A DNA stretch of 32,000 bases, taken from assembly GCA_046497275.1 (NCBI GenBank), contig JAWOFX010000001.1, forward strand, positions 305-32,304. The letters are read 5' to 3'. Under the pieces are notes generated by a model, which saw nothing but the letters and a program-made list of their open reading frames with translations, was not told where the DNA came from and did not search any database. Position 1 is the first letter of the stretch. Each line of letters begins with the position of its first letter. This DNA is from Promethearchaeia archaeon. GTDB lineage: Archaea; Asgardarchaeota; Lokiarchaeia; Sigyniarchaeales; SOKP01. Below are positions 11,769 to 17,365 of this stretch, piece by piece. The translations under genes and the position numbers were made by a program.

Positions 11769-13259
11769 GTGAAGTTTGAAGATTTTGAACTAATTTATAA
11801 AGAGAATCGGGCTGAGATCAAAAATAAAGAAGAGATTCTAAAAGATTTAAAAGAAAAGATTGGAAAGAAAAATGTTTCAACTAATGAAATAGATCGAATG
11901 GCATACACCAGAGATTCATCGCTTATTTCATTAAATTGGACCATAGAAGGAAAAATTGCGGGACTACCTGATATTATTACATGGCCAGAAAATTCGAATC
12001 AAATTAGTGAAATATTAAAAATAGCAAATAGAGAAAAAATTCCTGTAGTTCCTTTTGCTGAAGGTTCTGGGGTTGTTGGAGGAGCGATTCCCATTAGAGG
12101 TGGAATAATAATCGATATGAAAAGATTAAATAAAATTATTGAAATAAATGATAAAAATCTATCTGTAACTGTTCAAACGGGAATGAATGGTATGAATTTA
12201 GAGAGATATTTAAACTCTAAGGGATATACGGGAGGACATATCCCCCAGTCATTATATACATCATCAGTAGGGGGGTGGATCGCTCATAAAGCAGCAGGAC
12301 AATTCTCTACTAAATATGGTAAAATCGAGGATATTATTTTAGGCATGCAAGTTATTTTATCAACTGGAGAGATTATAAATTTTGATCCTATAGCGAGATC
12401 CGCAACGGGTCCTCAACTTGATAAATATTTTATTGGTAGTGAAGGTACTTTAGGAATCGTTACGCAGGCGACCCTTAAAATTTGGCCCTATCCAGAAAAG
12501 AGAACCCTTATTTCATATGTTTTTCCAAAAATAGAGGATGCTTTAGACGCAGTCCGTTTAACTTTACGAGAGAATGTTTATCCTGCTGTAGTGAGAATTT
12601 ATGACGCTGATGAAACAGCAAGACATTTTAAACATATAGAAAAAGCCACAGATAAAGTGATGACCGTTTTTGTTTGCGAAGGTAATAAAGAATTAGTTGA
12701 TTTAGAAGAAAAAATTACACGGGAAAAATGTAACGAACGATCTGGTGTGGATTGTGGAGAAGAACCAGTAGAACATTGGTTTGAAACACGATTCAAAGTA
12801 ACTGAAACTTCTATGTTTCCACCATATAAAATCGTTGCTGATACCATTGAAGTCTCAATAATGTGGGATAAAGCTTCTGAATTATATCATTCTGTAATTG
12901 GATCCACAAGTAAGGTGGAAGGTAATTTATTAATTACTGCTCATGTCTCTCATTTTTATCCAAATGGAGCTGGTTTTTACTTTACTTTTGGAGGTGTTCC
13001 CGGTAAAGGAAAATCTGAATTTGATTTCTATAAAGAATGTTGGGATGCTACAATTAAAGCAGTTTTGGATTCTGGTGGTTCTATTGCACATCATCATGGA
13101 ATAGGAGTCAATCGTTCTCACTGGATGGAAAGGGAATGGGATAATGGGTATGAAGTAATGAAAGAGTTTAAGAAAGTTCTTGATCCAAATAACATTCTTA
13201 ATCCAGGAAAAATATATGAAAAAACATGGAAAAAATCAACAGATGGAGGTGGTGATTAA
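11769..13259 (+). CDS. FAD-binding oxidoreductase (VAO/PCMH family), alkyl-dihydroxyacetone-phosphate synthase-like
   Basis: PFAEGSGVVGG FAD loop, GHIPQSLYTSSVGGWIAHKAAGQFSTKYGKIED, IGSEGTLGIVT, PAVVRIYD, HVSHFYPNGAGFYFTF, SIAHHHGIG, LDPNNILNPGK. These match the AGPS/YgcU subfamily rather than GlcD. Confidence 0.85.
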   Translation: MKFEDFELIYKENRAEIKNKEEILKDLKEKIGKKNVSTNEIDRMAYTRDSSLISLNWTIEGKIAGLPDIITWPENSNQISEILKIANREKIPVVPFAEGSGVVGGAIPIRGGIIIDMKRLNKIIEINDKNLSVTVQTGMNGMNLERYLNSKGYTGGHIPQSLYTSSVGGWIAHKAAGQFSTKYGKIEDIILGMQVILSTGEIINFDPIARSATGPQLDKYFIGSEGTLGIVTQATLKIWPYPEKRTLISYVFPKIEDALDAVRLTLRENVYPAVVRIYDADETARHFKHIEKATDKVMTVFVCEGNKELVDLEEKITREKCNERSGVDCGEEPVEHWFETRFKVTETSMFPPYKIVADTIEVSIMWDKASELYHSVIGSTSKVEGNLLITAHVSHFYPNGAGFYFTFGGVPGKGKSEFDFYKECWDATIKAVLDSGGSIAHHHGIGVNRSHWMEREWDNGYEVMKEFKKVLDPNNILNPGKIYEKTWKKSTDGGGD

Positions 13260-13261
13260 AA

Positions 13262-14617
13262 ATGGGGATATTTGATACTTTAAAAAAATATAAATGGATG
13301 CTTCCACTAATTCAAGACGCTGAAAGAAATGTGAGACGTAAGTTATTAAAAAATGTAAGAAAGAAAAAAGAAAATTTTTATCCCGAAGGCGAGTTTCATG
13401 CTGATATTAAGAATCTGATAAATTGCATGCTTTGCCCTAATATGTGTCGTTTTGATTGTGGAGTATTACAAGCTTCGGAAAATGAAGCACTATCTCCGGC
13501 TTATAAATCAAGAATAGGTTACTTTCTGACAACAAATAAAATAGATCCCTCTGATCCAAAAAATAAAGAATTTGTTGATTTGATGTACAAATGTTCAAAT
13601 GAAGAAAATTGTAAAATATGGTGTCCATTTGAATTTTCCGTTGTATCTCTGCTTGAGACGGTAAGAGATGATCTTAATGATAAAGGATTAATGCCCGAAT
13701 ATTGTAAAAAACAAATCAAAAAACTCCAAGATACAGGCACTATTGAGGATTATAATATTTTTAAAACCTATAAGGAAAAAGGTATCGAAAATATTGAAAC
13801 GGAAGGAGATGATGATGTTTTTTATTATATTGGGTGCCAAACTATGAAGTTTCCGGAAGTTGTAAAGGCGAACATAGAGTTTCTAAAGAAAGCAGGGATA
13901 AAATTCTCAACAAATTTAGATCAGAGAGTGTGCTGTGGGGCTCCAGCTCTTAACATTAGAGATTTTGAAACTAGTAAAAATCTTGCAGAAAATAATCTTG
14001 ACCTCATTAAAAAAAGCGGTGCAGAAATTGTTGTTTCTGACTGTCCCGGATGCGTGAATTCACTCAAAAATCGATATCAAAAATTTGGCATTGGAATTGA
14101 AATTGAAAAACAAAAACAAGGAGAGAATGAAGAAGAAGCTGAGGAGAAAACTGAAAAAGTGATTAAAAGTTATTTTGAGGAGGGACCCAAGATAATTCAT
14201 ATCGTAGAATATATAAAAATATTAGTTGAAGAGGGCAAGTTAACGTTTGAAGAACTTCCAGAGAAATATCAGAAAGTCACAATTCACGATCCTTGTCTTT
14301 TAGCGAGAAATTTAAATGATATCACGTCCATTAGAACAATTTTGGAACATATTCCTAACTTAGAAATTGTGGAACCAATTTATACTAAGGATTACACACA
14401 CTGCTGTGGATGGAGTGGTACGGTTCATTGGGCAGATAAAGAGATTTCTATAAAAGAAGCGGAGAATAGAATAGACGAGCTAAAAGAGACTGGTGCAAAA
14501 ATTATAGTTACCGCTTGTCCAACTTGTGAACTCGGCTTGGCTTATGGCATTAAGGATGAGGATAAAAAAGAGATTGAAATAAAAGATCTATCCGAATTGA
14601 TTAGCAAAGCAATTTAA
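13262..14617 (+). CDS. Fe-S protein with ferredoxin-like region and two CCG domains (GlpC/GlcF/HdrD-like)
   Basis: CMLCPNMCRFDC and CSNEENCKIWCP motifs. CCG domain 1: YYIGC...CCGAP...SDCPGC. CCG domain 2: HDPC...CCGWSG...TACPTC. Starts 2 nt after the flavoprotein stop, with GGAGGTGGTG upstream. Confidence 0.9.
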   Translation: MGIFDTLKKYKWMLPLIQDAERNVRRKLLKNVRKKKENFYPEGEFHADIKNLINCMLCPNMCRFDCGVLQASENEALSPAYKSRIGYFLTTNKIDPSDPKNKEFVDLMYKCSNEENCKIWCPFEFSVVSLLETVRDDLNDKGLMPEYCKKQIKKLQDTGTIEDYNIFKTYKEKGIENIETEGDDDVFYYIGCQTMKFPEVVKANIEFLKKAGIKFSTNLDQRVCCGAPALNIRDFETSKNLAENNLDLIKKSGAEIVVSDCPGCVNSLKNRYQKFGIGIEIEKQKQGENEEEAEEKTEKVIKSYFEEGPKIIHIVEYIKILVEEGKLTFEELPEKYQKVTIHDPCLLARNLNDITSIRTILEHIPNLEIVEPIYTKDYTHCCGWSGTVHWADKEISIKEAENRIDELKETGAKIIVTACPTCELGLAYGIKDEDKKEIEIKDLSELISKAI

Positions 14618-14800: not shown

Positions 14801-16354
14801 TTGGCGAAAATGGAACAAAAAATATTAATATTAGATATTGGAACTACCAATATAAAAGCTCTCTTATTTAATAAAAAAGGAGAGATTGTTGGTGAAGCTC
14901 GTCGTCGTCCAGATTATATTATGAAAGAAAAAGGGCAAGTAGAGCAAGATCCCAATCAAATTTGGCAGTATAGTAAAGAAGCTATCGAAGAAGTCATCGA
15001 TAAGAATAATTTGAGCGCCTCAGATATAAAGTGTATGGGGATTACCACTCAAAGAGCATCTTTTTGTATATGGGACAGAAGAAATGGAAAATTATATTCT
15101 AATATAATTACTTGGCAAGATAAAAGAGCTGCAAAATATGCTCAAGAAATGTCAAATAGTTTCTTTTTTAAATTCTTGAGAGGGTTTGCAAAAGTTGCAC
15201 ATATGTTGACTAAAAGTACAAAAATGCTTACAGCTTCAATGTTACAATTCAATTCAGATTACGCATCTATAAGAACTTCTTATTTTCTAAAAAATAATCC
15301 CAAATTGAATGAATTAATTCAAGATCCAAAAACTACTATTAGTTGGGGTACAATTGATACGTGGGTACTATGGAATCTTACAGAAGGAAGAGTTTTTGCA
15401 ACTGATTACTCCAACTGCTCCTCAACAGGTATGTTGGATCCTTTTACATTAGATTGGAATTCTATTGTTATCGATAAATTAAAAATACCTCTATACATTT
15501 TACCAGAAATAAAAGATACTAATGGTGATTTTGGAGAGACTAAACTCTTTGGCAGTGGCGAGATCCCTATTCGAAGTGTAGTGGCAGATCAACAAGCATC
15601 TCTATTCGGTCAATGTTGCTTTGATTATGGAGATATGAAAGTCACTAATGGGACGGGTTCGTTTGTAGATTTAAATACTGGAGATGAACCTTTCGCATCT
15701 AAAAGGAAATTATATCCCTTAGTGGCATGGAGATTAAATGGAGAGGTTTCTTATATCTTGGAAGGGCTAAGTCATAACTCAGGAAACATAATAGATTGGA
15801 TAAAAGAGGAACTCGAGCTATATGATGATCCGAGCGAAACTGAAGAGATGGCAAAAAGCGTTGAATCAACTGAAGGAGTATTTTTCCTACCAACATTCAC
15901 TAGTGGACTTTCATTCCCCTACTGGGATCCTTCGGCAAGAGGGAACATTTTTGGAATAAGCTTAAAAACTAAGAAAGAACATATAATAAGAGCTGTTTTA
16001 AATGGTATTTGCTTTAGAATAAAAGATTTTGTTGAAGGTATTATTGCAGATACAGGTATATCAGTCGATAGAATAAAAGCTGATGGAGGTGTGTCCCAAA
16101 ATACCTATGTTCTCCAATTCCTAGCAGATATACTTGATATGGAAGTAGAACATTCTCAGAATCCAGAGACAACAGCTCTTGGAGCTGCTTTTATCGCAGG
16201 ATTAGCAACTAACTTCTGGAATTCTAGAGAAGAGTTAAGGGAAATCAGAAAAATCGATAAAATTTATGAACCACGAATGAGTAAGGAGAGAAGAGAAAAA
16301 CTTTATAACAATTGGAAAGATATCATTCGGCGTTCCCTCAATTATAATTTCTAA
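14801..16354 (+). CDS. glpK: FGGY-family glycerol kinase, GK5-like
   Basis: LDIGTTN, VEQDP, GITTQR, TWQDKR, GTIDTW, TDYSNCSSTG, ADQQASLFG, KVTNGTGSF, ADGG, ETTALGAA. Carries the GK5-type insertion after WQDxR. Start is either TTG 14801 or ATG 14810. Confidence 0.9.
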   Translation: MAKMEQKILILDIGTTNIKALLFNKKGEIVGEARRRPDYIMKEKGQVEQDPNQIWQYSKEAIEEVIDKNNLSASDIKCMGITTQRASFCIWDRRNGKLYSNIITWQDKRAAKYAQEMSNSFFFKFLRGFAKVAHMLTKSTKMLTASMLQFNSDYASIRTSYFLKNNPKLNELIQDPKTTISWGTIDTWVLWNLTEGRVFATDYSNCSSTGMLDPFTLDWNSIVIDKLKIPLYILPEIKDTNGDFGETKLFGSGEIPIRSVVADQQASLFGQCCFDYGDMKVTNGTGSFVDLNTGDEPFASKRKLYPLVAWRLNGEVSYILEGLSHNSGNIIDWIKEELELYDDPSETEEMAKSVESTEGVFFLPTFTSGLSFPYWDPSARGNIFGISLKTKKEHIIRAVLNGICFRIKDFVEGIIADTGISVDRIKADGGVSQNTYVLQFLADILDMEVEHSQNPETTALGAAFIAGLATNFWNSREELREIRKIDKIYEPRMSKERREKLYNNWKDIIRRSLNYNF

Positions 16355-16537: not shown

Positions 16538-17365
16538 ATGCCTTACTTCAAAAATCAAGAGGGTTACAATCTATATTATGAAGAATTCAACCCTCAATCG
16601 AAACGGTGTACAGTAATATTACTCCACGGATTTGCCTCATCTGTATCTTTCTTTAAAGAACAAATAAAAATATTAAAGGAATATTATCGTATCATTTGTT
16701 TTGATGCTTTAGGGCATGGGCGCAGCGATCATACCAAAGAGATTAATTTATCTGGCAATATACGACATCAAATTATTCGAGATCTTGAAGATTTATTAGA
16801 ATATCTGGGGATTAAAGGTCCTTATGGAATTATAGGACATTCATTGGTAGGGGGAATGATTGCTCAACTGATATGTCAAAAACATATGGATGATGTAAAG
16901 TTTCTTATTCTCCTCAATTCAGGTTACATTAACACAGATAATGTTATTCGAAATATTTTCTACAATCTCCTTCCTTATATGGTGAGAATGAATTTTTTAG
17001 ATGTTGTAAATAATTCAATAGGAAACATTTTAGATAAAACAACACCTTATATAGTTCAAGCATTATCAAACTCCTTGTATAATGTGAAAATGTCTAAAGA
17101 AAAATTATTAATGCATATAGAAGATCAGATTTTTGGAATGATAAATGAGATTAAGGAATATGATCCCTCATATATCAAATGTCCGACCCTTATTATCGGA
17201 GGTAGGTTAGATAATTTTGCACCAGAACAAATGTCAGAGAGTTTAGCGGAAAGAATTCCAAATTCGAGATTAGAAATAATTGATATGGCTGGGCATTTTG
17301 GACCTGCCCAGAGAGAAGAAACTTATAATAAAATAATTTGCGATTTTATTCGATCCATTAAGTAA
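16538..17365 (+). CDS. Alpha/beta hydrolase (esterase/lipase-like)
   Basis: LLHGF oxyanion motif, FDALGHGRS, nucleophile GHSLVGG, acid GRLDNFAP, AGHF His. Confidence 0.88.
   Translation: MPYFKNQEGYNLYYEEFNPQSKRCTVILLHGFASSVSFFKEQIKILKEYYRIICFDALGHGRSDHTKEINLSGNIRHQIIRDLEDLLEYLGIKGPYGIIGHSLVGGMIAQLICQKHMDDVKFLILLNSGYINTDNVIRNIFYNLLPYMVRMNFLDVVNNSIGNILDKTTPYIVQALSNSLYNVKMSKEKLLMHIEDQIFGMINEIKEYDPSYIKCPTLIIGGRLDNFAPEQMSESLAERIPNSRLEIIDMAGHFGPAQREETYNKIICDFIRSIK

Follow-up and report, generated by a model that had tools for sequence, protein, structure and literature searches.

A GK5-like FGGY kinase of a Lokiarchaeial archaeon and its Asgard, bacterial and eukaryotic relatives

Introduction

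Two described groups of FGGY-family kinases stand closest to the gene analyzed here: canonical glycerol kinase GlpK, represented by the models TIGR01311 and NF000756 and by the solved structures 3g25, 1bu6 and 6k79, and animal glycerol kinase 5 (GK5). Mouse GK5 reportedly acts as a glycerol kinase. To our knowledge GK5 is the least understood of the animal glycerol kinases, and we know of no structural or mechanistic explanation for its derived pocket and hairpin; sequence and Foldseek searches found no GK5 structure in the PDB. The gene under study lies in a window of 32,000 nucleotides (nt), the whole stretch of DNA that was analyzed, from a Promethearchaeia archaeon of the Lokiarchaeia (GenBank assembly GCA_046497275.1, contig JAWOFX010000001.1, positions 305 to 32,304). 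With a probability of roughly 0.75, we read it as encoding an active ATP-dependent GK5-like FGGY kinase with a glycerol-type substrate, a member of a subfamily that arose from GlpK in prokaryotes, includes the GK5 of animals and amoebozoans and is common but patchy among Asgard archaea (the phylum Promethearchaeota in present NCBI nomenclature).

Surveys of lipid genes in Asgard archaea have listed a small number of Lokiarchaeota genes as 'bona fide glpK' and assigned them to no subfamily (PMC6737245; PMC6431249). Searches of the full-text literature returned no paper that joins 'glycerol kinase 5' with archaea or GK5 with Asgard, and no relevant one that joins it with prokaryotes. The subfamily is already known, recognized so far by databases only, and the kinase is a new member of it. 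NCBI and UniRef give the name 'glycerol kinase 5' to Asgard and Leptospira proteins, and the description of GK5 as metazoan-type, from which a first-pass annotation of this window had started, is outdated at the database level. What is new here is the position of eukaryotic GK5 among Asgard-rooted lineages, the subfamily-wide extent of the pocket changes and the hairpin, and the tie of the kinase to a pair of genes for an AGPS-like flavoprotein and a CCG-domain protein in Lokiarchaeales.

Results

Kinase gene, fold and catalytic site

The open reading frame (ORF) of the kinase is open throughout (Table 1). The N-termini of its homologues favor a start later than the TTG at its first position, and the ATG at 14810, giving 514 amino acids (aa), is the likely true start, since the homologue P0009 begins MEQKILILD and the Atlas record begins at residue 4. 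A TA-rich stretch lies about 50–60 nt upstream of the start region (14801–14812), in a window of about 30% G+C. The source assembly (3.85 Mb, 98.9% complete) has its closest protein relatives in metagenome-assembled genomes (MAGs) of Promethearchaeota and Lokiarchaeota.

Both Pfam halves of the family were recognized in the kinase (FGGY_N, 3.6e-45; FGGY_C, 2.2e-37). Its best NCBIfam matches are two GlpK hidden Markov models (HMMs), and it scores under the curated cut-offs of both, with 474.6 bits against 498 for the GlpK subfamily model NF000756 and 461.1 bits against 590.35 for the GlpK equivalog TIGR01311. GK5 of the sturgeon Acipenser and Hodarchaeal GK5-like proteins fall in an equally sub-threshold range on these models. 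The AlphaFold2 (AF2) model, built from a 105-sequence alignment, has a mean predicted local distance difference test (pLDDT) score of 96.1 and was matched by Foldseek to solved GlpKs with template modeling (TM) scores of 0.88–0.91 (3g25 at 0.88). The phosphotransfer residues D12, T15/T16, R85, W105, D263, Q264, G284-T285-G286, F288 and D428-G429-G430 are kept in all clades described below, and at the level of the alignment the phosphotransfer site is shown to be intact.

Insertion and pocket

The strongest likeness to GK5 is an insertion between the motifs WQDKR (residues 105–109) and SDYASIR (residues 152–158). The first-pass annotation had counted 42 residues between the two motifs, which is exact, and had given about 26 for GlpK, which also holds, canonical representatives being 16–17 residues shorter than the query. 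Within the 42-residue segment lies SFFFKFLRGFAKVAHMLTKSTKMLTASML (residues 120–148). A phmmer alignment to Staphylococcus aureus GlpK (3g25) opened 16 gap positions in the segment, and the distance from WQDxR to GTIDTW, measured in 270 relatives, fell into discrete classes of 55 residues (canonical GlpK), 71 (eukaryotic GK5), 73 (the query group) and 81 (a further prokaryotic group). Expressed as extra residues at the insertion site, these lengths correspond to 16 in eukaryotes and in the two prokaryotic clades named A and B below, 26 in the 81-class (class C) and none in canonical GlpK. For membership in the GK5 clade the indel serves as a character independent of the trees.

The segment was aligned by L-INS-i with eight eukaryotic GK5 proteins, among them those of Acipenser, Thomomys, Styela, Anopheles, Potamilus, Acanthaster and Arcella. 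That of the query ran gap-free to all of them, with 9–15 of 42 positions identical, about the level of the whole protein (34–40%), and the insertion thus aligns with that of GK5, as had been proposed. Canonical GlpKs lack 16–17 of these residues and share only 2–3 of 25 aligned positions. The string that the first-pass annotation had given for human GK5 closely resembles the segment of Thomomys (pocket gopher) GK5. Its description of the segment as amphipathic also stands: residues 121–138 have the highest helical hydrophobic moment in the protein (0.65). In the AF2 model the insertion forms a helix-turn-helix (helices 121–137 and 140–146) with pLDDT of 93–97, and per-clade conservation showed that Lys or Arg is kept across clades at positions 124, 131, 138 and 141. 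Such features could belong to a structural hairpin packed against domain I, or equally to a surface that would meet a partner or, as the first-pass annotation had suggested, a membrane.

The insertion sits between the pocket Trp and the loop equivalent to DPYF, and the pocket itself is altered. Arg85-Ala86 of the query are the residues that we take to correspond to Arg83-Glu84 of Escherichia coli GlpK, and the DPYF loop presumably holds Tyr135 of that enzyme. The query has QRAS and SDYA in place of the canonical QRET and DPYF. Position 86 is Ala, Ser, Gly or Asn in all four GK5-like clades and Glu in 14 of 20 canonical representatives; DPYF is replaced in every GK5-like clade, the query having SDYA and clade B and animals having T-D-H or T-Q-H. 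The 16-residue helix-turn-helix insertion, the loss of the Glu84 equivalent and the replacement of DPYF are shown by the alignments to be derived characters of the whole subfamily. Further motifs said to be shared with GK5 were borne out in part: the GK5-like clades have CCF, GDxK and YPLxxW, which canonical GlpK lacks, ETExMAKS is common to the query and vertebrate GK5 and not to other GK5-like groups, and of the terminal RSxN the RS is shared and the remainder is not.

Three proteins of canonical length, Eubacterium limosum GlpK and its relatives (P0128, P0135 and P0201), have no insertion and yet carry QRAT for QRET and APVYS for DPYFS. This group is sister to the GK5-like superclade (99/93) and may represent an intermediate in which the pocket changed before the insertion was gained.

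Phylogeny

Three maximum-likelihood (ML) trees were computed under LG+C20+F+G4 with posterior mean site frequencies (PMSF): one quick tree (92 rows), one careful tree from which the insertion columns were removed (103 rows), and a second careful tree with other sampling and all columns (75 rows). All three agree on a GK5-like superclade (100/98 in the tree of 103 rows) that is nested in canonical GlpK and has the 81-class proteins as its basal members, and canonical GlpK is likely the parent family of the subfamily. The kinase does not branch with ordinary GlpK. It belongs to a core GK5 clade that was supported at 99/88 in the careful tree and at 100/96 in the second, and whose counterpart in the quick tree is a clade of 47 rows that joins eukaryotes to clades A and B with a Shimodaira–Hasegawa approximate likelihood-ratio test (SH-aLRT) value of 99. 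An approximately unbiased (AU) test supports this placement, rejecting a single clade of all prokaryotic GK5-like sequences apart from eukaryotes (delta lnL 33.4, p 0.014). The core clade comprises four lineages: eukaryotes (100/85 and 97/92), where Arcella and its EukProt sister stand basal to the animals; clade A, which unites the query, other Lokiarchaeia and nested Spirochaetales (100/100); clade B, with many Asgard lineages, Leptospira and a Bathyarchaeote (100/99); and a lone Promethearchaeote, P0413. No protein above 49% identity to P0413 was found in 400 Asgard species genomes, and the candidates extracted from them belong to clade B.

The basal branches of the core clade (P0413, P0097 and L029) are all Asgard, and bacteria are nested. 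In the second careful tree the Spirochaetales of clade A (P0060, P0064, P0070, P0075 and P0082) lie within Lokiarchaeial sequences (96/90), while Leptospira has the clade-B form (P0345, P0351 and P0354) and the deepest branches of clade B are Asgard. With Spirochaetales nested in Lokiarchaeia and Asgard sequences at the base of clade B, the bacterial members look like recipients of transfer, and the trees suggest at least two Asgard-to-Spirochaete transfers of GK5-like kinases. On the same evidence the query is best described as a co-orthologue of eukaryotic GK5 and not its specific sister, since two or more paralogous Asgard clades, its own among them, form a polytomy with the eukaryotes. The proposal of an Asgard GK5 orthologue stands with this qualification.

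Distribution

The nearest relatives of the kinase, at 60–88% identity, are proteins of Lokiarchaeial MAGs, several of which NCBI names 'glycerol kinase 5'; homologues at 62–67% identity bear this name, and those at 69–83% are called glycerol kinase, FGGY family kinase or hypothetical protein. Spirochaetales MAGs follow at 53–59%, and Thermoplasmatota, Bathyarchaeia, Actinomycetota and one Hodarchaeote at 40–45%. In an exhaustive HMMER search of 50%-identity representatives the 71-class proteins rank just behind these, and look-ups identified some of them as GK5 of Styela (XP_039262763), Anopheles (Q7QJM6), Phlebotomus and Brevipalpus; another comes from the amoebozoan Arcella intermedia. With an EukProt protist query, the eukaryotic names among the matches listed were those of Metazoa only, and Asgard and actinobacterial proteins of about 40% identity are ranked in between. 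In the Atlas, the clusters that the language model places nearest to the query bear the name 'Glycerol kinase 5' and come from Spirochaetota, Chordata and Arthropoda. Class C, with its 26-residue insertion, is found in Thermoplasmatota, Bathyarchaeia, Theionarchaea and Actinomycetota.

A Hodarchaeal query uncovered the second large group, clade B, whose submitter labels name Hodarchaeales and Heimdall-, Thor-, Odin-, Hermod-, Sigyn- and Lokiarchaeota. Further members come from the cultured Ca. Lokiarchaeum ossiferum, from Leptospira (many species) and other Spirochaetes, and from one Bathyarchaeote. Clade-B proteins labeled Thor-, Hermod-, Heimdall- and Hodarchaeota (P0294, P0306, P0315 and P0116) turned out to be identical or near-identical to L041, L044, L047 and L036, which belong to one GTDB genus (g49). 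The class-level labels of clade-B MAG proteins are not reliable, and a class-level spread of clade B derived from submitter labels was rejected; Asgard spread was judged from tallies of families and genera. This label-free count gave matches for 122 of 400 Asgard species genomes, in 41 of 85 genera, and the GK5-like family is therefore widespread but patchy in the Asgard phylum.

Origin of eukaryotic GK5

The first-pass annotation had offered two ways to read an Asgard GK5: as a candidate eukaryote-signature metabolic enzyme, or as a sign that GK5 is older and more widespread. The trees favor the second. The core clade takes in the eukaryotes, two clades dominated by Asgard archaea, a Bathyarchaeote, and Spirochaetes, cultured Leptospira among them. 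Because the subfamily is widespread in Asgard archaea and present in some bacteria, GK5 is by its phylogeny much older than animals. A strict eukaryotic-signature label fails, since bacteria and other archaea also have the family: core-clade members occur in Spirochaetales, Leptospira and the Bathyarchaeote, and the sister class in other archaea and in Actinomycetota.

The outgroups are prokaryotic throughout, which would polarize the eukaryotic branch from prokaryote to eukaryote, and its position among Asgard-dominated lineages fits an origin possibly on the Asgard side without proving it. The eukaryotes join three Asgard-rooted lineages in a polytomy, and their range among the matches listed is Metazoa and Arcella. 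In a rival account eukaryotic GK5 was not passed down vertically from the Asgard host. An ancestor of animals and amoebozoans would have acquired it later by horizontal transfer, the donor being a spirochaete, an Asgard archaeon or some other prokaryote, and the Asgard gene would then be a prokaryotic GK5-like kinase of no particular weight for eukaryogenesis; we regard this account as a serious possibility, if short of even odds. No fungal, plant or other protist name stands beside Metazoa and Arcella among the matches listed, the family evidently crosses domains, with Spirochaetales inside clade A and Leptospira and a Bathyarchaeote inside clade B, and the polytomy gives the eukaryotes no specific Asgard sister. 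Against such a transfer, it is the basal branches of the core clade that are Asgard and the bacteria that are nested, a eukaryotic clade that includes Amoebozoa puts acquisition no later than the common ancestor of Amorphea, and the restricted eukaryotic range holds among the 120 matches listed only.

Genome setting and neighboring genes

In this 98.9%-complete genome no second GlpK-type kinase was found, neither a canonical GlpK nor a clade-B copy, and the other FGGY genes are XylB-like. The genome also encodes a GlpA/GlpD-type protein with a DAO_C domain and a PlsY homologue. The PlsY match (G000:C172:99445-99960, L017) lies within an open frame of 404 aa, roughly double the length of a typical PlsY, which may be a fusion.

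Upstream of the kinase lie genes for an AGPS-like flavoprotein and a CCG-domain iron-sulfur protein, and directly downstream one for an alpha/beta-fold hydrolase (Table 1). The best PDB matches of the flavoprotein are the alkyl-dihydroxyacetone phosphate synthases 2uuu (Dictyostelium, 5e-60) and 4bby (guinea pig, 2e-58), with D-lactate dehydrogenase behind (9e-41). AGPS itself is not known to need a CCG partner; in related loci the CCG gene is always paired with the flavoprotein. The hydrolase, which also has weak lipid-droplet-hydrolase matches, directly follows the kinase in many genera of the same family, and the order AGPS-like, CCG, kinase, hydrolase is kept in many of its genera, down to 58–66% kinase identity. 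In a genome of another family (L048:7190-11533; G134:C86) of the same order, a clade-B kinase stands head-to-head with the AGPS-like/CCG pair, about 10 nt apart. That two paralogous kinases adjoin the same flavoprotein/CCG pair argues for a functional link between kinase and pair within Lokiarchaeales. On one related Lokiarchaeial contig (L007:5429-6859), a shorter FGGY kinase (476 aa) and a flavin reductase lie between the CCG and GK5-like genes.

Table 1. Coordinates of the kinase gene, its notable segments and the neighboring genes in the window
Feature	Position	Strand	Basis and remarks
GK5-like FGGY kinase gene	14801..16354	+	ORF and translation; 517 aa from TTG 14801
Arg85-Ala86	15053..15058	+	QRAS vs canonical QRET; Glu replaced by a small residue
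WQDKR-to-SDYASIR block with GK5-type segment	15113..15274	+	Residues 105–158; 42 residues between motifs; gap-free to eukaryotic GK5
Helix-turn-helix insertion	15161..15238	+	Residues 121–146; AF2 helices 121–137 and 140–146; pLDDT 93–97; amphipathic; basic residues conserved at 124, 127, 131, 138 and 141
AGPS-like flavin adenine dinucleotide (FAD) flavoprotein	11769..13259	+	Pfam FAD_binding_4, FAD-oxidase_C
CCG-domain iron-sulfur protein (GlpC/GlcF/HdrB-like)	13262..14617	+	Pfam CCG (two), Fer4_8; NCBIfam matches all under cut-offs
Alpha/beta-fold hydrolase	16538..17365	+	Pfam Abhydrolase_1 / Hydrolase_4

From these elements a role can be proposed. The kinase would phosphorylate glycerol or a closely related derivative of it, with sn-glycerol-3-phosphate as the product; being the sole GlpK-type enzyme of the genome, it would feed the GlpA/GlpD-type glycerol-3-phosphate dehydrogenase and possibly PlsY. 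Its probable partners in Lokiarchaeales are the AGPS-like/CCG pair and the alpha/beta hydrolase, in the turnover of glycerolipids or glycerol phosphate.

Alternatively, the substrate could be another polyol or a bulkier derivative of glycerol, for example a monoalkyl- or monoacyl-glycerol, with an enlarged pocket and a basic amphipathic hairpin that reach lipids at the membrane. This would account for the change of the Glu84 equivalent to Ala, Ser or Gly and the loss of DPYF in all GK5-like clades, for an insertion of top hydrophobic moment and conserved basic residues placed between Trp105 and the DPYF-equivalent loop, and for neighbors that include an alpha/beta hydrolase and a flavoprotein whose best solved relatives make ether-lipid precursors. 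AF2, however, packs the hairpin on the domain with the high confidence of an ordinary structural element, the other glycerol contacts (R85, W105, D263 and F288) are retained, and the activity reported for mouse GK5 is that of a glycerol kinase; we consider a lipidic or other polyol substrate unlikely.

Discussion

The reading favored here, an active GK5-like kinase of prokaryotic GlpK ancestry, draws on the HMM scores, the gap-free insertion, the shared pocket changes and three concordant trees. A competing explanation, that the protein is an ordinary GlpK with an independent insertion and a likeness to GK5 by convergence, can point to GlpK HMMs as the best NCBIfam matches and to bacterial GlpKs as the best solved relatives, but it is already contradicted by the trees and the segment alignment and is highly improbable, given scores under both GlpK cut-offs, a tree that joins the kinase to eukaryotic GK5 at 99/88 even with the insertion columns removed, a gap-free segment as identical as the rest of the protein and several further derived motifs shared with GK5.

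Several observations nevertheless weigh against parts of the favored reading. With the Glu84 equivalent lost and DPYF replaced, the pocket differs from that of GlpK, and glycerol is a substrate that we infer; we know of no enzymology for any prokaryotic GK5-like member, and no MIP/GlpF glycerol channel was found in the genome. The order of eukaryotes, clade A, clade B and P0413 is not fixed, clades A and B grouping at 91/64 in the careful tree and collapsing into a polytomy in the second. The groups compared in the AU test were defined post hoc, with the tree already known. Among the matches listed, the named eukaryotic members are Metazoa and a single amoebozoan transcriptome. None of the Spirochaete, Hodarchaeal, Ca. 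Lokiarchaeum ossiferum and Leptospira loci shows the synteny, so the linkage of kinase and flavoprotein may be limited to one order, and a 190-nt AT-rich gap separates the flavoprotein/CCG pair from the kinase, so that their co-transcription is only a possibility.

AGPS, like GK5, is known from animals and amoebozoans. A bolder scenario would have eukaryotes inherit GK5 from their Asgard ancestor, with the kinase and the AGPS-like flavoprotein forming a conserved lipid module in Asgard archaea and the kinase acting at the membrane on glycerol or on alkyl- or acyl-glycerols by way of its basic amphipathic hairpin. We find this scenario doubtful; if it were true, two glycerolipid and ether-lipid enzymes of animals and amoebozoans would trace to one archaeal gene cluster.

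The favored reading itself has wider consequences. For the study of eukaryogenesis it adds one more metabolic family with a eukaryotic branch among Asgard sequences. It bears on the Asgard source of sn-glycerol-3-phosphate, the lipid backbone of bacteria and eukaryotes; earlier surveys entered such genes under glpK with no further distinction. For GK5 itself, hundreds of prokaryotic proteins have this hairpin together with the altered pocket, and cultivable Leptospira, Ca. Lokiarchaeum ossiferum and the conserved neighborhood offer tractable systems in which to study the function of the subfamily.

Compared with animal GK5, the kinase has the same two-domain FGGY fold, a 16-residue insertion at the same site, the same loss of the Glu84 equivalent and DPYF, the motifs CCF, GDxK and YPLxxW, and 34–40% overall identity, and it falls in the same clade in three trees. 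It differs in being archaeal and placed in a separate lineage, clade A, in having two extra residues past the segment (DP, at about 176–177) and in its setting, a prokaryotic gene cluster that also encodes an AGPS-like flavoprotein; the role in SREBP regulation described for mouse GK5 has no archaeal counterpart. With canonical GlpK it shares the ASKHA/FGGY fold, the catalytic Asp, the ATP loops and the Arg/Trp/Phe pocket, and it differs from it by 16 additional residues, Ala for Glu84, SDYA for DPYF and its place in a separate superclade. Prokaryotic proteins labeled 'glycerol kinase 5' in Leptospira and in MAGs of Promethearchaeota, Hodarchaeales, Lokiarchaeota and Spirochaetota owe this name to automatic annotation. 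Those of Leptospira and Hodarchaeales belong to the paralogous clade B, which has the same insertion length as the query and is told apart from it by WAD for WQD and GSG for GTG.

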